DNA of 64,000 nt from Actinomycetota bacterium (GTDB lineage Bacteria; Actinomycetota; AC-67): assembly GCA_046713235.1 (NCBI GenBank), contig JBKKBZ010000116.1, positions 2,742-66,741 of the forward strand. Reading direction: 5' to 3'. The notes beneath the pieces were generated by a model that saw only the letters and a program-made list of their open reading frames with translations, did no database searches and had not been told where the DNA came from. The translations under genes were made by a program, and so were the position numbers. Shown piece after piece: positions 25,449 through 41,438 of the stretch (position 1 is its first letter; each line of letters starts with the position of its first letter).

Positions 25449-26540
25449 CTAGGCAGGGACGGCGGACGAAGCGAATCGCCCGACGGCCTCCGCCAGCGCG
25501 CCGGCAAGCATGCGGCGGAACCTATCGTCGGCGAGTAGCGCCTCATCGGCCGGGCTCGTCAGGTAAGCGGGCTCGAGGTGAACCGCCGGCATGCGAGTCT
25601 CTCGCAAAATCGGCCACGTCTTGGCGTGCGTCCGGCCGTCGGTGAGGCCGAGCCCACACACGGCCGATTGGCAGAGATCGGCGAGTCTGGCTCCTACCTG
25701 AGACTCGAATCGCTCGTGTCCGTAGTAGAAGGTTGCCGATCCGCTCGCCGCCGAATCGGTGTGTGCCGCGGTGTGGATCGAAAGAAAGATGTCGGCGGAA
25801 AGGCGATTGGCAAGATGTGCCCGTTCCCGGTCGGTTGGGTTCGCCATGTCGTCACGCGTCAGGAACACCGATGCCCCGGAAACCGCGAGGCGTTCCTCGA
25901 GATGCCGGGCGACGGCATACACGCAGTCGGCTTCTGCCAGGCCGTCCGGACCCACATCTCCGCGGTCGGGACCGCCATGTCCCGGGTCGATCACTACGAC
26001 CAGCCCGGGCGTGCCGGCAAGACGGCGAAAGGACTCGCGCTCACGAATCGGCCCCACCTGAGGAACGGTTGGGTGAGCGAGATGGGGAAGGCCGGCCAGC
26101 GCGCGAACCGTCGATTCCCCGACGATCGCGTCGGGGGGGAGTCCGTAATTCTCCTGAAACTCGCGCAACGCAAGCGCGGTTCGGGGCCCGAGAATGCCGT
26201 CGACCCTGCCGGCGTCGAATCCGAGCGCGCTCAACCGCTCCTGAAGCTCCCGCACGTCGTCGCCGCGGATCTGTGGGGAACGCAGATACAGCGTGCGATC
26301 GCCCAGCCGCCAGGAGGCCTCCACTAGCTCGCGCCAGGTATCGGGACCGACGAGACCGTCTACGAGAAGACCTCGCGCTTGCTGGAAAGAGCTGACGGCT
26401 TGAGCCGTTCCGGAACCGAACGCCCGGCTCCCCTCGTCCTCGCCTACCGAATGGCCGAGAGCGATCAGCCGCTGCTGGATGTCGCGGACTGCTCGTCCTC
26501 GGGCTCCCGGTCCGATGACCATGGCGCTATCCTTCCCCAA
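25449..26540 (-). CDS. cwlM: CwlM-like N-acetylmuramoyl-L-alanine amidase with two PG-binding domains
   Basis: Two PG_binding_1-like repeats (LVDGLVGPDTWREL, VDGILGPRTALALREFQ) and an Amidase_3 core (VVIDPGHGG...SIHTAAH). Confidence 0.8.
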   Translation of the reverse strand: MGKDSAMVIGPGARGRAVRDIQQRLIALGHSVGEDEGSRAFGSGTAQAVSSFQQARGLLVDGLVGPDTWRELVEASWRLGDRTLYLRSPQIRGDDVRELQERLSALGFDAGRVDGILGPRTALALREFQENYGLPPDAIVGESTVRALAGLPHLAHPTVPQVGPIRERESFRRLAGTPGLVVVIDPGHGGPDRGDVGPDGLAEADCVYAVARHLEERLAVSGASVFLTRDDMANPTDRERAHLANRLSADIFLSIHTAAHTDSAASGSATFYYGHERFESQVGARLADLCQSAVCGLGLTDGRTHAKTWPILRETRMPAVHLEPAYLTSPADEALLADDRFRRMLAGALAEAVGRFASSAVPA

Positions 26541-30388: not shown

Positions 30389-31177
30389 CTAGATCGGGCG
30401 TTGCGCCCAGTAGAGAGTGAAGCAATCCGACGGACGAAGGACCCAGACTTCGGCCCTCGTCGGGCTGCCCTTGGGCGCGACGAAGAAGAGCACGTAGGCT
30501 TCGCGACCTTCGAACGTCGCGACCTCGTAGCGCTGGGGATCAAGCGGCGCATCGGCTCCACGGACGACGTCCTCGGCGCATTCGAGCAGCCCGGGTGGAG
30601 CCGTTGTAAAGGCCGTCCCTGTTTCGTATTCACCCGAGGCGGGACTAGGTATTAGCGTGTCCTTCGAGGTGCTTCTTGCGGTTCCCCTCTCGGTGGACCC
30701 GTCCACGGCAACGGTGCCGAACGCGGCCAGCTCGGCCGAGGCTGAAGCCCGGTCGTAGGTGCGTCCGGCGAGCACGGTGACCTGCTGATCCGAGGCTCCG
30801 GAGGTGTTCTCCCGGAGTGCCGAGTTGCCTCCCTGTCGAGAGACGTCGCGCAGGCTGAGCAGTCCGATCGCCAGCAATCCGGCTGCCGCCGCACCGGCGG
30901 CCCATCCCCAGCGGCGGGTCGCTTTGCTGCGCGCGGGGGAGACGACCGCGAGGCGACGTGCCTCGGCGACCCGGTCGGTGATGAAGGCTGCGGAGACCTC
31001 ATCGAGCGCCACCGGCTCGAGGGAACGCAGGTCGCCGACCGTCGCCCGCAGCGCCTCCAGGGTGCGGCGGCACTCCGCGCACTCGGGGAGGTGATCGTCG
31101 ATGCCGGCGCGGTCGGCGGCGTCGAGCTCTCCGTCGAGATAGGCGGAGAGCAGGTCGAGCTGGTCGTGTTTACTCAT
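30389..31177 (-). CDS. Anti-sigma factor, ZAS-type (HxxxCxxC) with TM segment and extracytoplasmic domain
   Basis: Start at MSKHDQLDLLSAYLDGELD with HLPECAECR. The start overlaps the sigma-factor 3' end. Confidence 0.7.
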   Translation of the reverse strand: MSKHDQLDLLSAYLDGELDAADRAGIDDHLPECAECRRTLEALRATVGDLRSLEPVALDEVSAAFITDRVAEARRLAVVSPARSKATRRWGWAAGAAAAGLLAIGLLSLRDVSRQGGNSALRENTSGASDQQVTVLAGRTYDRASASAELAAFGTVAVDGSTERGTARSTSKDTLIPSPASGEYETGTAFTTAPPGLLECAEDVVRGADAPLDPQRYEVATFEGREAYVLFFVAPKGSPTRAEVWVLRPSDCFTLYWAQRPI

Positions 31178-31769
31178 CGGGTCTCGCCACCTTAGAGGGT
31201 TCTTCCTCCCCCTCGGGTTCCAAGTGCCCGAGAATACGTGCCAATTCGAGCCGGGCACGATGGAGGCGGCTCTTTACCGTCCCGATCGGAATTTTCAAGG
31301 CAAAGGCGACTTCGGAGTAGTCCAGGTCCTCGAGGTCGTGAAGAACGACGACTGCCCGGTGATCCGGGCTCAGCGAGGCGACGCCTCGGCGGACGGCTTG
31401 GGCGCGGTGCGCTGCCAGGGCCAGTTCCTCCGGCCCGGGGCCGGCATCGGCCGTCTCGGGAACGTCGTCGAGCGCAGCGTGGTCGCGCCGGCTGCGGCGG
31501 CGACCGAGGTCCACGGCTGCGTTCACGGCAAGCCGGTGAAGCCAGGTGGTCAGTTTCGCCTCGCCGCGGAACGACCCCAGCGAGCGATAGGCCGTCACGA
31601 ACACTTCCTGGGCCACGTCGAGGGCGTCCTCGTGACGCCCGCACACGCGAAGCGCCACCGCGTACACCCGCGTGCGGTGGCGGGAGACGATCTCATCGAA
31701 GGCGGCAGTTTCCCCGGCGAGATGCCGCCGGACCAGCTCGGGGTCGGTCGCGCGGGTGGGGTCGGTCAT
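31170..31769 (-). CDS. ECF sigma-70 family sigma factor (SigM-like position)
   Basis: Region 2 (DALDVAQEVFVTAYRSLGSF) and region 4 (LDYSEVAFALKIPIGTVKSRLHRAR). 199 aa. Confidence 0.85.
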   Translation of the reverse strand: MTDPTRATDPELVRRHLAGETAAFDEIVSRHRTRVYAVALRVCGRHEDALDVAQEVFVTAYRSLGSFRGEAKLTTWLHRLAVNAAVDLGRRRSRRDHAALDDVPETADAGPGPEELALAAHRAQAVRRGVASLSPDHRAVVVLHDLEDLDYSEVAFALKIPIGTVKSRLHRARLELARILGHLEPEGEEEPSKVARPDE

Positions 31770-31776
31770 CGACGCC

Positions 31777-32943
31777 TCAGCCGCCGTCGTTCACGTATAC
31801 CCGCTCGATGTGGGAGCCCACGAGCAGGCGGCGGGCCTCGATGCGCACGACGTCTCCCACGGCCACTCCCGGAACGTCGCCGACATCGACGGTTGCTTGC
31901 TGCATCGAGATTCGTCCGACGACGGGCGCCCGTCCGCCGCGTACCGTAACCGCGCGCGGGGACGAGCGACGGCCGGCGACGATCGCCGCGACGCGCAAGC
32001 CGGCTCGCGCCGCTTCCGACCAGGATTCGGTTCGGGCGGCAGGCTCGAGGCCGAATCCGTCGGCGTATCCGACCGGGATGGTGGCAACTCGCGTCGGCCG
32101 CCCGGCGCGCCACTCGCTCCCGTACCCGACACCTTCGCCGGTTGCGACCGTTCGCAGGCTGACGATGCGTGCGAACCAAGAGAACGGATCCTCCAGCGGC
32201 ATCGGTGCGCGAACGTGCGGAGGATCGAGACCGTATAGGAGCGTTCCCACGCGCACCATGTCGTAGCGCGCCTCCGGGTGGGCAATCGTCGCCGCGGAGT
32301 TTGCCGCATGGAGGATGGTCCGGGCGGCTCTCTTTCCCAGCGCCGTCCGGACGCGCTCGAAGGCCGCGATCTGAGGAGAGGCCGACGCGGTCCCGGCGGC
32401 CGCGAAGTGGGTCCAGATACCTTCGAGCGAAATGTGGTCATCCCCGGCCGCCCGGCCGGCAACGACCACCGCGTCGTTGGGCGAAACCCCCAGGCGTCCC
32501 ATTCCGGTGTTGACCTTCATGTGGACATGCGCGCGCTTCCCGCCGGCCTCGGCGGCAGCCGAGATGGGACCGAGATCTTCGGATGAGGCGACGCATAGGG
32601 TGAGGTCGAGGGCGATCGCGTCGCGGATCAGGTCTGCCGGAATCGGAGTGAGCAGCAGGACGGGCGTGGAGATCCCCGCTGTGCGGAGCTCGCGTGCCTC
32701 TTCCCATCGGGTGACCGCGAGCATGCGAGCCCCGGCGTCGGCCAACGTGCGCGCGACGGCAACGAGCCCGTGGCCGTAAGCGTTGGCCTTCACCACGGCG
32801 CACACGGGAACGCCGGCGTGTGCCGCAACGGCCGCAAAGTTGTTGCGTATGGCGTCGAGCGAGATCTCGATCCACGTGGACGCACCCCGGGGGATCCGCC
32901 CGGCATCACCGGGAGATCCAAGGTCAGTCGGCGAGCGAGCCAC
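31777..32943 (-). CDS. alr: Alanine racemase
   Basis: PLP-lysine motif AVVKANAYGHG. 388 aa. Confidence 0.85.
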   Translation of the reverse strand: MARSPTDLGSPGDAGRIPRGASTWIEISLDAIRNNFAAVAAHAGVPVCAVVKANAYGHGLVAVARTLADAGARMLAVTRWEEARELRTAGISTPVLLLTPIPADLIRDAIALDLTLCVASSEDLGPISAAAEAGGKRAHVHMKVNTGMGRLGVSPNDAVVVAGRAAGDDHISLEGIWTHFAAAGTASASPQIAAFERVRTALGKRAARTILHAANSAATIAHPEARYDMVRVGTLLYGLDPPHVRAPMPLEDPFSWFARIVSLRTVATGEGVGYGSEWRAGRPTRVATIPVGYADGFGLEPAARTESWSEAARAGLRVAAIVAGRRSSPRAVTVRGGRAPVVGRISMQQATVDVGDVPGVAVGDVVRIEARRLLVGSHIERVYVNDGG

Positions 32944-34012
32944 CGCTGCCTCGCAGAGCCTTGAGCGCTCTCATTGCCACCGGCGCACCGTATCGCCATC
33001 CTCGGTACATCACCGAACGCAGCGGGAGGTCCAGCTCGCCGACGTACTCCACGTAGCGCGCGCCGAACCCGGCCTTGAACCGATTCAGCCCGGCAAGGTG
33101 CTCTTCGGTCGGCTTGCCGTTACGCATGGGCGACACCCCGCGAAAATCGTAGGTCTGAAAGCCTCGGTCGTGCGCCCAGCGGATCATCGTCCACTGGAGC
33201 AGATGATTCGGCATGACGTTGCGATCCCGGCTCGACGAGGCGCCGTAGGTATACGTCGCGCGAGACCCGAACGTGAGCAGCATCGCCCCGGCGATCGCGC
33301 GACCCTCGTACCGCGCGAGGAACATCGCGAGCCGGCCGGCCGGCGTCAGGACGTCGACCAGGCGCTCGAAGTACTCGCGGCCGCGAATGAGGAAATGGTC
33401 CCTGCGCGCCGTCTCGAGCAGCAGGTCGTAGAAGACCGGAAGTTCGTCTCGTCCGGCCTCGGAAACTTCCACTCCCTTTCGCTCGGCCAGCCGGATGTTG
33501 TACTTCCATTTCTTGTGGAACCCTTCGTGCACGCTGTCGATGCCGGGGGCGAGATCGAGGACCATGACCGCGCGCGGTTGTACGCCACCGAATCGTCCCG
33601 CCCCCGACGGACGAAAACCTGCGGCCGCCAGGGCACCCGCTTCCGCGATGCCCATCGGAATCGGAGGATCACACTTCAAGAGGATTGCCTTTCCCGCTCG
33701 CCGCTCGACCTCGGCAAGTATTGCCCCAAGAGCCTCTGGTTGCCGGTAATCGAGCACCGGGCCACGCGGACAGTACAGAATCGGAGGCGCCCCACGAACC
33801 GGTCTCGTTTCCAGAACCTGAGCCGCTGCGACGATCCCGTGGCCGCCTTGGACGAGGATCCGATGGGGGACCCAGCCGCCGGTGCGCTTGACCTCCCCCC
33901 AGGCGAAGGATTGGAGAACGTCGGCGAAGGGCGAGCGCGCAACGAAGTCGTCGTAGAGATCCCTCTCGTGCTCGCCGGCGATGCGGGGCCGCAAGGCCCC
34001 TGAGTCGATCAA
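32924..34012 (-). CDS. FemAB/FemX-family peptidoglycan bridge-forming aminoacyltransferase-like protein
   Basis: FemAB-like core (FLQSFAWGEVK...KWKYNIRLAERKG...ATYTYGASS). Start set at TTG 34012 overlapping the upstream stop (TTGA). The ORF track extends to 34222 within the neighbouring gene. Confidence 0.65.
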   Translation of the reverse strand: MIDSGALRPRIAGEHERDLYDDFVARSPFADVLQSFAWGEVKRTGGWVPHRILVQGGHGIVAAAQVLETRPVRGAPPILYCPRGPVLDYRQPEALGAILAEVERRAGKAILLKCDPPIPMGIAEAGALAAAGFRPSGAGRFGGVQPRAVMVLDLAPGIDSVHEGFHKKWKYNIRLAERKGVEVSEAGRDELPVFYDLLLETARRDHFLIRGREYFERLVDVLTPAGRLAMFLARYEGRAIAGAMLLTFGSRATYTYGASSSRDRNVMPNHLLQWTMIRWAHDRGFQTYDFRGVSPMRNGKPTEEHLAGLNRFKAGFGARYVEYVGELDLPLRSVMYRGWRYGAPVAMRALKALRGSGGSLAD

Positions 34013-35397
34013 CCTGCCGCCTCGAATGTGATTTCGGCGACGGCGGCCTGGAACGGGAGGTTGCTTCCCGAGCCGGCGTTGGCAAGCTCCGTTATCCACA
34101 GCAGCCAGTAACGACCCTGGTTTTCCCCGGACGGCTTCACCGCGCCGTCGGAGCTGGCCGTAAACGACGCGACGACCCTGTAGTCGGCCGCAGACCCTCC
34201 GGCCGCGCCGGAGACTCGCCATTCACCACGCCAGCCGGCGATGGGGCTGCGCAGACGGATCGTATCGACGCGCACGTTGGCTCCGAGATCGAAGAGCAGG
34301 CCGACGCCGGGCTTGGAGCCGCCGAGGTTTGCCGACGCGTAGCCCACAGTCGTCCATGCGCTGGTGGCGTCACCGTCGAGAACCAGCGCTACCTTTTCGG
34401 GGTGTTCGCTGCCGTTTCCGGGATTCGGGTCGAAGTCCCGGACGGCTGCCACGGATAGCGCCCCCCGGGGCGAAGGGGAAGGGGATGCCGCGCCCTCGCG
34501 TCGCTGGGGAAGGAGCTTCGCAACGGTCAAGCCGGCGACGATCGCCCCGGCCGCGACGCCGAGGAACAACAAGAGCGCGAGCAACCACCGGCCCTCCGTT
34601 CGCAGGTAGCCCGGCTCCCGAGCGGCCGGCGGTGCCTTGGGGGCTGCGAACGGCTCGACTGCGTCGAGAAAGCTCGGCAGGTCCGAGTGCCCACCGAGAG
34701 CGCGTTCGACGGCCGAAGCGAGTTCCGCAGTCACCCCGCGCGATCCTGTCAGGGAGGTGCCCGGTGTGTTGGGCGGGCGGCCGGTGAGCATGTGGACGGT
34801 GAGAGCGGCCAGTGCCCGAAGGTCTGCCTCTGCCGGCTCCTTCGGATCGGGACCTGGGTACCCCTCCGGCTGTACCGGTGGATCGGCCGGCTCTCCTCGC
34901 GCTCCTCCGGCAAGCATCGCAACCTCCACCAGGCCGGGTCCGAGCAGCTTGGCTCGGCCTTCCTCGTCGAATGCCACCCAGGCCGGACCGATGGCGCCGT
35001 GCGTCCGCCCCGCTTGATGAAGGACCCGGAGCGCGGCCCCGACACTGGATGCCACCCGCGCCGCCTCGGCAACCGGGAGCGTGCCGTCGCGCAGCCGCTC
35101 GGCGAGCCGCCCGCCCGTCGGGTGCTCGGTGACCAGGTACGGCGGATCGTCGCCGCAGTCGTAGATCTGCACCAGACGCCGGTCGACGAGCTGGGCGTCC
35201 CGTGCGGCGATGCGCAGAAGCGCCTCGCGGGTCCCGGCATCGCCGGCAACATCGGGACCCAGCATGTGAACGAGCACCGGCCGGTTCAGGACGGTGTCGC
35301 GCGCCTCCCAAACCGGCCCGGCCGGCGCCGGCCACGCCAGACGTTCCACGCGGTAACGCCCCGCGATCACGGTGCCGGTTCGCACGACGTCTTTCAT
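34009..35397 (-). CDS. Pseudokinase-TM-extracellular domain protein (homolog of the C-terminal module of mycobacterial MviN/MurJ)
   Basis: Kinase-like fold with degenerate catalytic residues (VLVHML replaces VAxK; HQAGRTHGAIGPAWVAF replaces HRD-type). Followed by one TM helix (WLLALLLFLGVAAGAIVAGL) and an about 190-aa extracytoplasmic domain. Confidence 0.6.
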   Translation of the reverse strand: MKDVVRTGTVIAGRYRVERLAWPAPAGPVWEARDTVLNRPVLVHMLGPDVAGDAGTREALLRIAARDAQLVDRRLVQIYDCGDDPPYLVTEHPTGGRLAERLRDGTLPVAEAARVASSVGAALRVLHQAGRTHGAIGPAWVAFDEEGRAKLLGPGLVEVAMLAGGARGEPADPPVQPEGYPGPDPKEPAEADLRALAALTVHMLTGRPPNTPGTSLTGSRGVTAELASAVERALGGHSDLPSFLDAVEPFAAPKAPPAAREPGYLRTEGRWLLALLLFLGVAAGAIVAGLTVAKLLPQRREGAASPSPSPRGALSVAAVRDFDPNPGNGSEHPEKVALVLDGDATSAWTTVGYASANLGGSKPGVGLLFDLGANVRVDTIRLRSPIAGWRGEWRVSGAAGGSAADYRVVASFTASSDGAVKPSGENQGRYWLLWITELANAGSGSNLPFQAAVAEITFEAAG

Positions 35398-35444
35398 TTG
35401 GATAAACGCACCCTCCCAGCGCGGCGGGTAATGTCGAGAGACGG

Positions 35445-35834
35445 TCAGACGGAAAATGCTCGCGCGCTCGAACGCACCCTGACGAACCTCCTGAGTGGTC
35501 CGATTCGGTGAATGAAGAGGGTCTTGGCCTCCCTGGCTACGGTGACATTGACCCGCTCCTGGCCGCCTGCTCCTGCGTCGTCCGCAGAGAACCCGACGAG
35601 AACGGATCCCTCTCGGCGGACGATCTTCTCGGCTTCCGCACGTGCCGCCCGAACGTCGCGCGAATGCGCGAAAACGCCGACTGCCTCCTGGGCGGCGGTT
35701 CGGGAGGCGTTGTCCGCGCCGACGTTGGCGATCACGATTGCCGCGCCCTCAAAGAGCAGCACGCCGGCGACGGCCAGCCCGACGAATACCCGAAGGAACC
35801 ATCCGATGAGGATGCCGCCGCGCTCGCCGCTCAC
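35445..35834 (-). CDS. TadE-like/pilus-assembly-like small membrane protein
   Basis: N-terminal ERGGILIGWFLRVFVGLAVAGVLLFEG resembles the TadE N-terminus. Start overlaps the murJ stop. Confidence 0.35.
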   Translation of the reverse strand: MSGERGGILIGWFLRVFVGLAVAGVLLFEGAAIVIANVGADNASRTAAQEAVGVFAHSRDVRAARAEAEKIVRREGSVLVGFSADDAGAGGQERVNVTVAREAKTLFIHRIGPLRRFVRVRSSARAFSV

Positions 35835-37513
35835 ACCCTCGATCCTCGCACGAAACGCGCGAGTACGGTGCGAACCAGGGGGCGCGACTCCTCCATGCGC
35901 AGCAGCACGGCAAGTCCGGCATAGACGGCGATCCCGGACGCCACACCCGCCGCAACCTCCAGCATCTGCCCGGAGAGCGCGGTCGTATCGACGGCATCGG
36001 CCACTGCGCGCGAAGCGGCCCAGGCCACCGCTCCGGTCGCGGCGGACGCACCGAGAATCTTGGCGTGGCTTACGGCCACCCGGCGCCCGTCGATGCCGCC
36101 CAGCTTGCGCCGGAGAATCGCACCACCGATCACCGCGGCCAGGAGGTACGACGCGGCGTGCCCCAGGGCGAGACCCGGGACGCCCAGCGCGGCAAACAGC
36201 GGGAAGTTGACCACGATGTTGAACGCGGTCGACCAGAAGTTGATCAGCCAGGGCGTCCTCGTATCCTGCCGGGCATAGAGCGCTCGCGTTTGCTGTTGAA
36301 ACACGGCGAAGCCACCGAGTCCGAGCGCCATGAACGCGAGCGTGTCGGCTAAGAGTTCCGTGGATCCCCGCGAGAACACCCCATGCTCGAGAAGGAGCCT
36401 GACGATGGGCGTGGCGAGGGCGACGAACCCGGCCGCGGCCGGCAGCACGACGAAGGAGGTCATGCGCGTGCCGGTGGAGAGGTCCCGGATGAAGCTCGTC
36501 CTGTCGCCCCGTACGTGATGCGCCGAGAGCGCCGGGATCAGGGCTGTGAAGACGCTAACCGCAAAGATGCCGTACGGCAGCTGATACAGCGCGTAGGCGC
36601 CTAGAAACGCCGTCACCCCGCCGTTCACTCGGTTCGCCAGGGCGAAAACCATCCAGAGCCCGACCTGATTGATCGCGACGAAGGCAAGCGAGTACTTGGC
36701 GAGATGCCCGACGCGGCGGACGGCGGGATGTCGCCACTCCCACGCACGGAAGCTGTACCGGCCGGGCAGTTGACGAATGTACGGCCACAAGATGAGCGTC
36801 ATCACGACGACCCCCAGCGTCGTCCCCCCTCCCAACAAGAGCTTGTCGGCCGTCGTCAGATCGGTGAGCTGGAGGATCCCTTCCGGGTTCTTGATCCGGA
36901 AGGCAACAAACGTGGCCGCGACGATCACGTTGTTCAAGACCGGAGCAAACATCGGCGGCGCGAAACGCCGGTGTGCCGTGAGGAGGCCCGTCAGCACGGC
37001 GCCTGCGGCGTAGAAGATCATTTGGGGCATCAACAGCCGCAGCAGAAACGCACCGATTTCGTTCTGCTGGGAGCGCAAAGGCTCGGGCGCGCGGAAGGTG
37101 TACATCCGGATAAGCCAGGGAGCGGCGAGCACCGTCACGACGACCAGTGCCGCGGCCGCCACCACCGCAAGATTGAGAATCGTTGAGGCCAGCCGCCAGG
37201 ACTCGTCACGGTCCCGCGTGGTGAGATACTCGACGAAGACCGGAACGAAAACGGTTGCGAGAATCTCTCCCAGGATCAGTTGGTACACGACGTTGGGTAG
37301 GTTGTTTGCCAGGTTGTACGTGTCGGGGACCTTCGATTCGACCCCTCCGATTGCCCAGGCCATCACCGAAAGCCGCACGAAGCCGGTCGCCCGGGACAGC
37401 GTGGTGCCGACGCTCATCACTGCGGTCGCCCTCGTTAGCGAGATTCCGGCGTGCAGGTCCGGGGCCTCCGGGGCGGCAGGCTCGGGCGCGGCCGGGCGAT
37501 CCGCTTCGCTCAC
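35831..37513 (-). CDS. murJ: Lipid II flippase MurJ/MviN (membrane domain only)
   Basis: 560 aa with about 14 TM segments and the MurJ pattern. No fused kinase-like domain. Confidence 0.85.
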   Translation of the reverse strand: MSEADRPAAPEPAAPEAPDLHAGISLTRATAVMSVGTTLSRATGFVRLSVMAWAIGGVESKVPDTYNLANNLPNVVYQLILGEILATVFVPVFVEYLTTRDRDESWRLASTILNLAVVAAAALVVVTVLAAPWLIRMYTFRAPEPLRSQQNEIGAFLLRLLMPQMIFYAAGAVLTGLLTAHRRFAPPMFAPVLNNVIVAATFVAFRIKNPEGILQLTDLTTADKLLLGGGTTLGVVVMTLILWPYIRQLPGRYSFRAWEWRHPAVRRVGHLAKYSLAFVAINQVGLWMVFALANRVNGGVTAFLGAYALYQLPYGIFAVSVFTALIPALSAHHVRGDRTSFIRDLSTGTRMTSFVVLPAAAGFVALATPIVRLLLEHGVFSRGSTELLADTLAFMALGLGGFAVFQQQTRALYARQDTRTPWLINFWSTAFNIVVNFPLFAALGVPGLALGHAASYLLAAVIGGAILRRKLGGIDGRRVAVSHAKILGASAATGAVAWAASRAVADAVDTTALSGQMLEVAAGVASGIAVYAGLAVLLRMEESRPLVRTVLARFVRGSRV

Positions 37514-39504
37514 ACCGGGGCCCGGTTCCGCGAGCGGCTACGCAGCGCCCTGCGCATCCACGTGAGGAAGAGCGCAATCGCTCCGCCGAGGGTGATGATG
37601 AGCGTCACCGCACTAACGCGAGTCGAGCGCACGACCAGCTCGCTCTGCCCGACGGGGGCGCCGTCGAGGGTCTCCAATCGCACGACGACGGGGAAGGATC
37701 CGCTGACCCGTGTCTCTGCTTGGAACGTCATGGTGAAGACCCGCTGGGCCACCGTCACGTTGCGGCTCGCGCCTCTCGGGAAGCGCATTTTCGTCGAATC
37801 GAGCGTGACCCGCACGCGCACCGGTTGACCGGTGCCGTTGACGAGCGTGACCGGAATCTGAGCGATTCGCGATGTCAGGGTCACCCGGCGCTCCGGCACC
37901 CTGATCAAGTCCAGTGTGCGCTCGGCGCGCCCCCGTGCAGCACGTGCGAGGATCGAACCCCGAGAGGGATCGGCGATCCAGTCCGCGGACTGGGCCGCCA
38001 GGATGAGACGCTCCAGAAGCTCGACCGGCCTCTCGGGCTCGAGCACCCGTACGAGTGTGTCCACGGCCCGACGAGCCGCGCGAGCAGCAGACAGCGCCGG
38101 CCGGTCGGGGTCCGTGGAGCTGTCGAGAGCGAGTACCTTGTCGGTTGGGGGGAGCGCGGATGCGGCTTGGGTGGCGGTGAGAAGGCGGACCCATGGAGCG
38201 CCTGCCAGCGCGTCGAGAAGCGCGCCTGCTGCAGCCGAGTCGGGCGACGTCGGGGTGCCGACAACGAGCAATCGCTCGGAGGCAAGCGCCGGGAGCTCGA
38301 AGAACGAAGCGGCGGTCTCTGCCACCACGCCCTGCGCGGCCAGGACCGGATCGCGCCTGCTGCTCAATCGGTCGCGAATGGCGGGATCGACGACCAGGCC
38401 CGTCAGTCGAACCTGATTTCCGCCGGCTAGTGCTTGGGGGCGATCGAATCCGAAGTTCGTCAGGCTTTGGGGGAGGGACTCGGGCGCGATGGCCACCACC
38501 CGGGCACCAGTCGCGGCGATCGCGCCGGCCGAGCGCTTGTCGAGACGGAAATCCGGGGGCACGAACAGTCCCGGCGTGGCCGGGCGCCCGAGCAACCGCC
38601 GGATGCGCTCATCTTCGGAAGAGAGTTGCAGGCTCAGCTCGCTCTGCATCCGGTTCGACAGCAACCCGATGATGTCGGCGCGGGAATAGGTCGAAGAAGC
38701 CAGGTCGATTGCCGGCGACCCCACCGCGCGGCGGAGGGCGGCGAGCGCCCGACGCGCTCCCACCGCGGTCGGGTCGCCGGGATGCACGGCGCGCCTGCCG
38801 CCGGCCGGGTAGCCGTCCCCGGCGTCGTCGAGCTGGTCGAGCGTCAGTCCGGTCGGCGCGATCGTGACCGGAGCGCTGGGGCGGGAAGCAAGTGCCTCGA
38901 TCACCGCCCGGAGACCTGCTCCCGGCGCCAGGTGGCGCTCGATCGTTCCGGATGGGTAGACGCCGCGGGCATCGAATGCGGCCGGCAGATGAACCGGGTA
39001 GATCCACGCGACGTTCAGCCGGCTTGACGGCGGCGTGAAGAAGAACGGCACAGCCGTTGTCGCGTGGGCCAGGTCCCGGCCACCGGATATAAGGCGCACC
39101 GACACGGGATACACACCATCGCGGCCCTGGGCGCGAAACGTCCCGGCAAGGGTACCGAGATCCCGGGTCAGGGTTCGGACCCGGCGCTCCCCGGAGACGA
39201 GCGGTTCGACTTGGTCTGTCGTTACAACGAGAACATCACCCCCGGGGTTGCCGTCGAGGGCCGCACGAAGCTCCGATCGCGAGAAAACCCGGTTGTGCAC
39301 GGAGATTCTGATCGTGAGATCCTCGAGCGGGATGGATCCGGGGTTCGTGAGCGCGAACGTCACGCTCAGCAGGCGATCCTGACCGACGAAGGGGGAAACC
39401 CCCAGGAGCGTGAACCCGGGGTCCCGGTCTTGGGCAAGTCCGGATCCGGGAAGTGTCCCCAGGAGGAGTCCGAGCGCGAGGAGAGCGGCGCGTACGATCC
39501 GCAC
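37510..39504 (-). CDS. Secreted/exported conserved hypothetical (Rv3909-like, DUF6049-type)
   Basis: Signal peptide MRIVRAALLALGLLLGTLPGSGLA. 664 aa. Syntenic with mycobacterial Rv3909 next to mviN. Confidence 0.5.
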   Translation of the reverse strand: MRIVRAALLALGLLLGTLPGSGLAQDRDPGFTLLGVSPFVGQDRLLSVTFALTNPGSIPLEDLTIRISVHNRVFSRSELRAALDGNPGGDVLVVTTDQVEPLVSGERRVRTLTRDLGTLAGTFRAQGRDGVYPVSVRLISGGRDLAHATTAVPFFFTPPSSRLNVAWIYPVHLPAAFDARGVYPSGTIERHLAPGAGLRAVIEALASRPSAPVTIAPTGLTLDQLDDAGDGYPAGGRRAVHPGDPTAVGARRALAALRRAVGSPAIDLASSTYSRADIIGLLSNRMQSELSLQLSSEDERIRRLLGRPATPGLFVPPDFRLDKRSAGAIAATGARVVAIAPESLPQSLTNFGFDRPQALAGGNQVRLTGLVVDPAIRDRLSSRRDPVLAAQGVVAETAASFFELPALASERLLVVGTPTSPDSAAAGALLDALAGAPWVRLLTATQAASALPPTDKVLALDSSTDPDRPALSAARAARRAVDTLVRVLEPERPVELLERLILAAQSADWIADPSRGSILARAARGRAERTLDLIRVPERRVTLTSRIAQIPVTLVNGTGQPVRVRVTLDSTKMRFPRGASRNVTVAQRVFTMTFQAETRVSGSFPVVVRLETLDGAPVGQSELVVRSTRVSAVTLIITLGGAIALFLTWMRRALRSRSRNRAPV

Positions 39505-39978: not shown

Positions 39979-40191
39979 TTACTTCGAGCCGCCCTTTCGC
40001 CCGATCCGCTGGTAGAACTCGACCCCGTAGCGCCGCTTGGTGGACTCGCCGCCCTTCTTCCCACCGAGCCGCCCGATCTTCCCAAAGAACTCGTCGCCGT
40101 GGCGCTGCTTCGTGGCGAGTCCGCCCTTGCGTCCCGCTTCCGCTCTGGTCATCTTGCGCTTTTCTGCAGTGTCCTCCGCGAACACGGGCAT
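39979..40191 (-). CDS. KGG-repeat general stress protein
   Basis: 70 aa with repeated GGxxT/KxxxGxEFYxxIGxKGG motifs. Confidence 0.6.
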   Translation of the reverse strand: MPVFAEDTAEKRKMTRAEAGRKGGLATKQRHGDEFFGKIGRLGGKKGGESTKRRYGVEFYQRIGRKGGSK

Positions 40192-40358: not shown

Positions 40359-41438
40359 ATGGCCCAGATAGAGATCGACGACCTGCTGAGAATGACGGCC
40401 GAGCGCAAGGCCTCCGACCTCCACCTCCGGGCCGGAGGTCCCCCGTACGTGCGGGTGGACGGCGAGCTGTACCAGCTCGACGGCATTTCCTTGACGCCGG
40501 CCGACGCCGAGCGCCTTGCGTTCAGTCTCATGACGGAACAGCAGGCGCGGGAGTTCAACCGGACCAACGAGCTTGATTTCGCCTACACCGTCCCCGGGCT
40601 GGCCCGCTTCCGAGTCAACGTCTTCCGCCAGCGGGGCAGCCTCGGCGTGGCCGTGCGACGCGTGCTGCCCGGCGGGTCGTCGTTTGATGCTCTCGGCCTC
40701 CCTCAGGTCGTGCGGAAACTGGCCGACGAGCAGCGAGGGCTAGTGCTCGTCACCGGAATGACGGGCTCGGGAAAGACGACCACGACGGCGTCGATGATCC
40801 ACCACATCAACATGACCCGCCGTTGTCACATTGTGACGATCGAGGATCCGATCGAGGTTCTTCACGACGACCGGATGGCGATCGTCGATCAGCGGGAAGT
40901 AGGGATCGATACCGCCGACTTCTCGGTGGCGCTCCGTCACGTTGCCCGGCAAGACCCGGACGTGATCTTCATCGGCGAGATGCGCGATATCGAGACGGTA
41001 AAGGCGGCGCTGCAGGCGGCCGAGACCGGCCACCTTGTCGTCTCCACGCTGCACACCTTGAATGCGACCGAGACGGTCAACCGCATCATCGACTTCTATC
41101 CGCCGCACCAGCAGATGCAAGCGCGCCTCTCGCTTGCGGGAACCCTGAAGGGGACGGTCTCGCAGCGGTTGCTCCCCCGAACCGACGGCAAGGGCCGGAT
41201 CCCGGCCGTCGAAGTCTTGATCATGACCGGGCGCGTCTACGACATGATCATCAACCCCGAGAACACCCACCTGATCGAGGACGTCATTGCCGAGGGAGAT
41301 TTCTACGGGATGCAGACCTTCGATCAGCACCTGCTGGGGCTCTATCGTGAGGGCCTTGTGACGATCGAGAATGCGGTTGCCGCCGCGAGTTCTCCGCACG
41401 ACTTCACGCTGGCGGTTCGTCAGGCCGGTCTGGCCTAG
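40359..41438 (+). CDS. pilT: Type IV pilus retraction ATPase PilT-family
   Basis: Walker A GMTGSGKTTT, Asp box, His box (HLVVSTLHT) and the PilT-specific C-terminal region. Confidence 0.85.
   Translation: MAQIEIDDLLRMTAERKASDLHLRAGGPPYVRVDGELYQLDGISLTPADAERLAFSLMTEQQAREFNRTNELDFAYTVPGLARFRVNVFRQRGSLGVAVRRVLPGGSSFDALGLPQVVRKLADEQRGLVLVTGMTGSGKTTTTASMIHHINMTRRCHIVTIEDPIEVLHDDRMAIVDQREVGIDTADFSVALRHVARQDPDVIFIGEMRDIETVKAALQAAETGHLVVSTLHTLNATETVNRIIDFYPPHQQMQARLSLAGTLKGTVSQRLLPRTDGKGRIPAVEVLIMTGRVYDMIINPENTHLIEDVIAEGDFYGMQTFDQHLLGLYREGLVTIENAVAAASSPHDFTLAVRQAGLA

Follow-up and report, generated by a model that had tools for sequence, protein, structure and literature searches.

A membrane-anchored pseudokinase encoded apart from murJ in an Actinomycetota bacterium: a match in position and architecture to the C-terminal half of mycobacterial MviN

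In Mycobacterium tuberculosis, MviN (Rv3910) combines in one chain a MurJ core, a linker, a pseudokinase, a transmembrane (TM) helix and an ectodomain described as carbohydrate-binding, and its gene lies in the Rv3909-mviN-sigM operon (PMC12599244). Structures of the pseudokinase are available (PDB 3OTV, 3UQC and 3OUN), and MviN has been assigned to the ActPs3 family of O'Boyle et al., whose hallmark, shared by at least 50% of its members, is the loss of about 40 residues from the activation loop. Phosphorylation of a juxtamembrane Thr of MviN by PknB leads the pseudokinase to recruit FhaA (PMC12599244), and M. tuberculosis CwlM binds MurJ/MviN via an essential 140-aa linker (PMC6180346). The pseudokinase extension of MurJ has been said to occur only in organisms with an arabinogalactan layer (PMC10166564). 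We have analyzed a stretch of 64,000 nucleotides, hereafter the window, from an Actinomycetota bacterium (GTDB lineage AC-67; contig JBKKBZ010000116.1, positions 2,742 to 66,741), in which murJ and the gene of a kinase-like membrane protein, termed here PsK, are separate and enclose a gene for a small membrane protein. A first-pass annotation of this DNA had described the arrangement as a split MviN. All coordinates below are positions in the window, and the three focal open reading frames (ORFs) lie on its minus strand.

Inspection of the ORFs bore out the separation: MurJ and the pseudokinase are not one polypeptide, and a gene of 129 aa stands between them. The lipid II flippase core MurJ (35831..37513, minus strand, 560 aa) matches PF03023 at 1.3e-82 and the equivalog model TIGR01695 at 284.1 bits over residues 25-546 (cut-off 235.55), with about 14 residues remaining beyond the end of the MurJ model. 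The small gene (35445..35834, minus strand) starts at a GTG preceded by GAGG and, as had been annotated, overlaps the murJ TGA stop by 4 nt; the junction reads GTGA, and through this overlap the gene is translationally coupled to murJ. PsK (34009..35397, minus strand, 462 aa) starts at an ATG 47 nt after the stop of the small gene, with GGGAGGG upstream. A gene encoding a DUF6049 protein opens the series, its stop overlapping the murJ start by 4 nt, and the run from the DUF6049 gene through murJ and the small gene to PsK forms one translationally coupled operon next to oriC.

The AlphaFold2 (AF2) model of PsK (predicted local distance difference test, pLDDT, 89.5) displays a complete bilobal kinase fold, a helix at residues 264-292 and a C-terminal beta-sandwich. 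The cytoplasmic part is a Hanks-type kinase fold (residues ~8-250; 34648..35376, minus strand) in which the catalytic residues are replaced, as assigned by alignment to PknA and PknE and checked over 27 full-length orthologues. His44 stands for the beta3 Lys of the VAIK motif and Ile63 for the alphaC Glu; the catalytic loop HRDxKxxN has become H133-G-A-I-G-P-A-W140 (HRD to H133-G134-A135, Lys to Gly137, Asn to Trp140), DFG has become G153-P154-G155, and the GxGxxG glycine loop reads W-P-A-P-A-G. None of the lost residues is restored in any of the 27 orthologues (415-466 aa, all stand-alone): their beta3 position is occupied by H, Q, Y, F or E, never by K, and no Asp is found in the catalytic loop or at DFG. 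The lack of the VAIK lysine had been correctly read in the first-pass annotation; its statement that HRD is missing holds for the Arg and the Asp, but not for the His, which is kept as His133 and is invariant among the orthologues, Trp22 being nearly so. A complete catalytic apparatus, looked for by alignment, is absent from PsK and from all 27 relatives, and on this alignment PsK appears catalytically dead on an intact kinase fold. Its length and many of its positions are conserved in the 27 orthologues, which indicates purifying selection and a maintained pseudokinase, not a decaying gene. Compared with Hanks-type receptor kinases such as PknB and PknA, PsK lacks the Lys, the two Asp, the Asn and the glycine loop. 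As a sensor it has a discoidin-type domain where they have PASTA repeats, and its gene is tied to murJ, whereas theirs are tied to the pknA/pknB-pbpA-rodA-pstP-fhaAB cluster.

The single TM helix that had been proposed was recovered as a hydrophobic segment at residues ~271-296 (34510..34587, minus strand), the AF2 model placing a helix at 264-292. It is preceded by the conserved juxtamembrane motif EREPGF-LRTEGRW, and residues E268, W271 and L272 are invariant in the alignment of PsK orthologues. The extracytoplasmic part is somewhat shorter than the about 190 aa initially given, with ~166 aa of which ~150 are folded, and is modeled as an F5/8 type C (discoidin, galactose-binding-like) beta-sandwich (residues ~312-460; 34018..34464, minus strand; pLDDT 86-98). 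Taken alone, the ectodomain of the window matches PF00754 at an E-value of 0.13 (12.8 bits for a cut-off of 28.2), and profile matches in the PDB are weak, with F5/8 and CBM32 proteins at 0.038 and 0.1. Among 20 ectodomains of the family, 13 match PF00754 (best 9e-7) and 13 match PF22633. PsK is bitopic, with a dead kinase domain inside and a discoidin-type domain outside, and the beta-sandwich is probably glycan-binding. Four of the 20 ectodomains also weakly match PF24607, the third carbohydrate-binding module of the arabinofuranosyltransferase AftD (best 0.0028), a possible hint at the type of glycan that may be recognized.

In position and architecture, PsK corresponds to the C-terminal half of M. 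tuberculosis MviN, on account of its chromosomal position, its module order, a fused relative and a profile match to the MviN pseudokinase structures. Like mviN, the module is located between a DUF6049 gene and an extracytoplasmic function (ECF) sigma gene near oriC. For this comparison, we take the H37Rv gene order to put mviN between Rv3909, of DUF6049 type, and sigM, near oriC. The order of modules is also the same, namely MurJ, a catalytically empty kinase-like domain, one TM helix and an ectodomain of sugar-binding type (for MviN, by description), and a CwlM-like gene is found nearby, as at the MviN locus. The split form and MviN are bridged by a fused homologue in a Propionibacteriaceae locus (L071), a protein of 1166 aa (MurJ, pseudokinase, TM helix, discoidin domain) which aligns with PsK over its full length, including the ectodomain motifs, and whose pseudokinase region matches 3OTV at 7.8e-8. 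A profile built from degenerate relatives matches 3OTV, 3UQC and 3OUN at 1.7e-26 over the whole domain, and in this search the 3OTV group ranks directly after PknB, PknA, Stk1, PknE and StkP, above all eukaryotic kinases. The difference from MviN lies in the presence of three polypeptides instead of one, together with an additional pilin-like membrane protein. A direct sequence link between PsK and the MviN pseudokinase was also sought. With PsK of the window, phmmer gave no match to 3OTV, 3UQC or 3OUN in the PDB at E<=0.01, and both this search and hmmsearch with the 27-member profile returned active kinases only, among the matches listed; the link came to light only through the fused relative and the profile of degenerate relatives. 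The structural comparison suggested in the first-pass annotation did not single out the MviN pseudokinase either, since 3OTV, 3UQC and 3OUN are not among the top 50-60 structural matches of PsK. One PsK orthologue (P0021) carries the JGI annotation 'putative peptidoglycan lipid II flippase', transferred by pipeline.

The distribution of the arrangement was followed by scanning one genome per GTDB species, which gave 247 loci with a relative; the best 80 of the 247 were kept, 79 of them being usable, and were scored from stop-to-stop ORFs against the window proteins and an iterated profile of the small protein. This sample is biased towards relatives of the window, and Mycobacteriales are under-represented. 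The genes for MurJ, the small protein and the kinase follow each other directly in 52/79 loci, in the order DUF6049-murJ-small-kinase-sigma. An extra gene separates the small and kinase genes in 5 loci, murJ directly adjoins the kinase gene with the small gene absent in 5 others, and another spacer with no match to the small gene is found in 4; a single locus is fused (L071), and in the other 12 the kinase gene has no murJ upstream. On four long contigs, gene calls made independently gave the same order. The split three-gene layout is thus the common state in this part of the Actinomycetota and no peculiarity of this genome, adjacent and fused forms occur in lineages without the small gene, and the window is an ordinary member of a widespread arrangement. 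In both loci examined, the extra gene encodes a secreted NlpC/P60 peptidoglycan endopeptidase (L044:5148-5900 and L076:4895-5977), and several loci with this insertion are labelled Mycobacteriales or Frankiales. Five Nitriliruptoraceae loci (L057, L070, L077, L079 and L081) have the DUF6049 gene, the small gene and an intact kinase gene one after the other, with no MurJ match within 8-14 kb, and in four further loci the kinase gene lacks such synteny. The DUF6049 ORFs of these five Nitriliruptoraceae loci are unusually long (770-940 codons). Three loci of Solirubrobacterales (Conexibacter; L042, L062 and L073) encode full-length, intact kinase-TM-discoidin homologues without murJ, DUF6049 or sigma synteny.

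What the first-pass annotation did not anticipate is that most positional orthologues of PsK have an intact catalytic apparatus. When 78 kinase domains were aligned to the family profile, 49 of them kept the beta3 Lys, the HRD Asp, the catalytic Asn and the DFG Asp, and most of these 49 also kept the alphaC Glu and the Gly-Gly loop. The intact orthologues, which look like active kinases, share the TM helix, the discoidin ectodomain and the synteny with PsK, and include Nitriliruptoraceae, Acidimicrobiia and Solirubrobacterales loci. The degenerate pattern in the clade of the window reads H/Q/Y at the Lys, HGA or HGS at HRD, W or T at the Asn and GxG at DFG; other degenerate orthologues carry HLD, HGR, HLN, HER and other patterns, and loci labelled Mycobacteriales, Frankiales, Streptosporangiales and Propionibacteriales, as well as the fused L071, are also degenerate. 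PsK is part of a family found across the phylum, in which the other members appear to be active receptor Ser/Thr kinases, and, as judged from these motifs, the family is a receptor kinase that turned into a pseudokinase in some lineages. In a crude neighbour-joining (NJ) tree of the kinase domain, the degenerate forms, including the clade of the window and the fused L071, make up one long-branched group, within which the fused and adjacent forms (L071, L080, L063 and L061) constitute a sub-branch without the small gene. The kinase domains of the three Conexibacter loci group with PASTA-type kinases in this tree. The first-pass annotation had left the choice between an ancestral unfused state and a fission; the unfused layout is probably ancestral, being the simplest reading of the layouts, the motif states and the NJ tree. 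The most likely order of events starts with an active kinase encoded beside murJ, followed by loss of catalysis, loss of the small gene, adjacency and finally fusion as in MviN, which suggests that the fused tuberculosis MviN derives from a once-active receptor kinase.

The small gene encodes a single-pass membrane protein of 129 aa with a confident AF2 model (pLDDT 92.2), comprising one long helix (5-58) that includes the TM segment, then another helix and a sheet of three strands (78-85, 94-102 and 119-127). Its homologues are solely stand-alone proteins of ~115-170 aa. In a word-indexed database, 146 matches were found, all unnamed or 'hypothetical' and without Pfam domains, and a full HMMER scan gave 858 cluster representatives at E<=1e-3 and 466 at E<=1e-10. 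Conserved positions of the family are E4 and G7 (E4-R-G7), an invariant W12, F28-D29, and A103 and T105 near the C-terminus. The first-pass annotation had called the protein TadE-like. For the window protein this label is weakly supported, with no Pfam match and 20 bits against TIGR03816 for a cut-off of 50.95; it finds some backing in the family, where 9 of 41 relatives match PF13400 (best 1.8e-7) and 5 of 41 match PF07811 (best 5.6e-4). The prepilin-peptidase site is not matched, the invariant Trp12 standing where the prepilin motif has Glu at +5 after the Gly, and no tad/flp genes, such as those for an Flp pilin, TadV or TadA/B/C, and no prepilin peptidase or platform protein are found at the locus, which has a lone PilT-like ATPase gene upstream. 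The protein may be regarded as pilin- or pseudopilin-like, with its folded domain outside the membrane and a weak N-terminal similarity of TadE/TadG type. Unlike TadE/TadG-like pseudopilins (PF07811, PF13400, TIGR03816) and GspI/EpsI, none of whose curated thresholds is reached by the window protein, the family is specific to the murJ-kinase setting. In about 57/79 loci murJ is followed by a homologue. As the small gene almost always lies immediately upstream of the kinase or pseudokinase gene, we have taken its product for a dedicated partner of the latter. A remnant of the small gene was considered as the origin of the M. tuberculosis linker E541-F680. This was rejected: the linker of L071 is of low complexity with no match to the small-protein profile, and the TM helix of the small protein at this place would invert the topology.

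Taken together, we consider it reasonably probable that this locus represents, in unfused form, the actinobacterial MurJ/MviN module for cell-wall control, with PsK acting in trans. In this organism PsK would be unable to phosphorylate anything and would instead be a membrane scaffold or an allosteric regulator, acting on MurJ or on wider peptidoglycan synthesis. On the outer side of the membrane, the discoidin domain would sense a glycan of the cell wall; on the inner side, the dead kinase domain might bind to MurJ or bring in cytoplasmic partners, in analogy to the mycobacterial PknB/FhaA/CwlM system. The small pilin-like protein, its folded domain being outside, could be a third membrane subunit or a co-receptor. 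A more far-reaching version, which we put forward only tentatively, holds that murJ, the pilin-like protein and the discoidin kinase, with DUF6049, were an ancestral device controlling lipid II export. In most lineages the active kinase would sense wall glycan through its discoidin domain and phosphorylate MurJ or proteins that work with it, the pilin-like protein being indispensable as a co-receptor. Catalysis would then have been lost, once or severally, the dead kinase becoming a permanent subunit of MurJ and eventually part of the fused MviN; the organism of the window would be an intermediate in which the kinase is dead and separate and the co-receptor is kept.

Several observations speak against an unfused MviN-type module. 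Neither MurJ nor PsK has a counterpart of the essential 140-aa linker of M. tuberculosis (E541-F680). Unlike in ActPs3 and MviN, the activation segment of PsK is not deleted and is of normal length, with 39 residues from G153 to the alphaF Asp192, near that of canonical PknB-type kinases; a short activation loop is present in the relatives L061, L068 and L076. The juxtamembrane Thr267, within LRTEGRW, is conserved only in the closest 12 orthologues. The partner genes that the first-pass annotation had proposed to look for did not appear either: tblastn of the 64-kb window with three Ser/Thr protein kinases (STPKs) matched PsK alone, and a GarA FHA probe of low sensitivity had no match in the window. 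Since the window encodes no detected STPK or FHA partner and Thr267 is conserved so narrowly, the mycobacterial phospho-switch cannot simply be assumed for this organism. The linkage to MurJ is not obligatory, as some lineages have the small and kinase genes without murJ, or the kinase gene without synteny. Finally, the NJ tree rests on one domain, and the grouping of degenerate forms could be due to long-branch attraction.

Of the explanations that compete with an unfused MurJ/MviN module, the one that deserves most attention, although we regard it as rather unlikely, is that PsK and the small protein are a receptor pair controlling a target other than MurJ, such as the downstream ECF sigma/anti-sigma pair or other wall enzymes, the adjacency to murJ reflecting a shared envelope operon. 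The sigma/anti-sigma pair does follow the kinase or pseudokinase gene in nearly all loci, the small gene almost always keeps its place directly upstream of the kinase gene, the five Nitriliruptoraceae loci have no MurJ match and four more loci lack synteny, and other wall genes (NlpC/P60, FemX, Alr) have been inserted in various lineages. However, murJ neighbours the kinase gene in 67/78 scored loci (68/79 with L004), the fused locus being counted; the fusion to MurJ in L071 and, according to the literature, in Mycobacteriales (PMC10166564, PMC12599244) strongly indicates functional coupling, and experiments tie the fused domain to peptidoglycan control (PMC6180346).

Fission of an ancestral fused gene of MviN type, with later insertion of the small gene, is in our view improbable. 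The clade of the window groups in the NJ tree with the clade holding the fused L071, as fission would have it, but only 1/79 loci is fused, the fused and adjacent degenerate forms occupy a single sub-branch without the small gene, and unfused intact orthologues accompanied by the small gene prevail in other lineages, Acidimicrobiia and Nitriliruptoraceae among them; the low-complexity linker of L071 retains no trace of the small protein. Still less credit can be given to PsK being an atypical active kinase or a nucleotide-binding enzyme with non-canonical residues, in the manner of WNK or SelO. Such a role would be in line with its complete fold, its normal activation segment and its invariant HRD His, and has precedents among pseudokinases (PMC12599244); against it, all five catalytic elements have gone together, with none restored elsewhere in the 27 orthologues, and the glycine loop has been replaced by W-P-A-P-A-G with its nearly invariant Trp22. 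That a sequencing or assembly frameshift separates a truly fused gene has next to no credibility. A complete and conserved gene of 129 aa with its own start and ribosome-binding site lies between murJ and PsK, and independent assemblies of dozens of species share the layout; the frameshift raised in the first-pass annotation was thus checked and excluded, the same layout being conserved in more than 50 species.

The combination of a split module, a third pilin-like component and transitions from active to dead kinase towards MviN is not described as a class in the literature found, and literature on MurJ with a pseudokinase and on DUF6049 gave no further account of the split arrangement. The ActPs3 catalogue mentions neither synteny with MurJ nor discoidin domains nor the small protein (PMC12599244). 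Across the Actinomycetota the module has a gene of its own, in most cases accompanied by a pilin-like partner and in many with the kinase intact, which contrasts with the view that it is restricted to organisms with arabinogalactan (PMC10166564). A family of small proteins that had no annotation, counting 858 cluster representatives and strongly linked to MurJ in its genomic setting, is now defined. The loci also offer a natural series, from active kinase to a dead one in trans, then adjacent and fused, which lends itself to asking what signal the module perceives, whether its action on MurJ is direct and how bacterial pseudokinases evolve. These results bear on the role of the MviN pseudokinase and ectodomain in controlling the export of peptidoglycan precursors.

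The three focal genes belong to a tight run of same-direction genes on the minus strand (29.4-39.5 kb), in the order DUF6049-murJ-small gene-PsK-femX-alr-ECF sigma-antisigma-trxB, oriC-proximal, the last gene encoding thioredoxin reductase. The DUF6049 protein (37510..39504, minus strand, 664 aa; PF19516 at 1.3e-24) has a signal-peptide-like N-terminus, a big extracytoplasmic region and a C-terminal TM anchor, and its gene is found upstream of murJ in nearly all related loci. Downstream of PsK lies a gene for a FemAB/FemX-type peptidyl transferase (32924..34012, minus strand; PF02388 at 8.5e-50), whose start is probably the TTG at 34012, overlapping the PsK stop as TTGA according to the junction sequence; a 4-nt overlap is also present in the related locus L001. 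It is followed by the genes for alanine racemase (31777..32943, minus strand; PF01168 at 4.6e-64 and PF00842 at 2.8e-23), for an ECF sigma factor in sigM position (31170..31769, minus strand; Sigma70_r2 and r4_2) and for a zf-HC2 anti-sigma factor (30389..31177, minus strand; PF13490 at 1.9e-09). The start of the latter is uncertain, the ORF being open from 31258 and the ATG at 31177 being the better fit. Scans of the operon for promoters and terminators gave sites no more numerous than expected by chance. The insertion of femX and alr (31777-34012, minus strand) between the pseudokinase and sigma genes is found only in the clade of the window (L001-L010); in lineages outside this clade the sigma gene comes directly after the kinase gene.

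The wider window has the features of an oriC region, with gyrA, gyrB, recF, yidC, parA, parB and genes for a thioredoxin, a CwlM-like protein, a PilT-like ATPase and a CCA-adding enzyme. The CwlM-like protein (25449..26540, minus strand; two PG_binding_1 domains and one Amidase_3 in Pfam) has its gene 7.5 kb downstream of PsK, a relative position shared with M. tuberculosis cwlM, and a CwlM-like gene belongs to the same cluster in L001, L002, L084 and L085. Divergent from the operon and upstream of it, the highly conserved PilT-like T2SSE ATPase gene (40359..41438, plus strand; PF00437 at 1.4e-41) has lone counterparts in 35/83 loci (including L001, L002, L084 and L085) with 50-84% identity, and at least 56% over full-length matches. 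Among informative loci, the ATPase and small genes were both present in 32, the small gene alone in 1, neither in 3 and the ATPase gene alone in 1, kinship between loci being ignored in these counts. It is uncertain whether this ATPase is part of the murJ-kinase system; one possibility is that a pilin-like protein is functionally linked to an ATPase of retraction type with neither lying in a pilus cluster. Between the PilT-like and DUF6049 genes, a gene of 66-70 aa was considered as a Flp pilin and rejected, as it encodes a hydrophilic Lys/Gly-rich repeat protein. This protein is conserved (39979-40191 in the window, minus strand; L001:2236-2433; L084:1890-2093) and resembles stress/LEA proteins, with a weak match to PF00477 (LEA_5).

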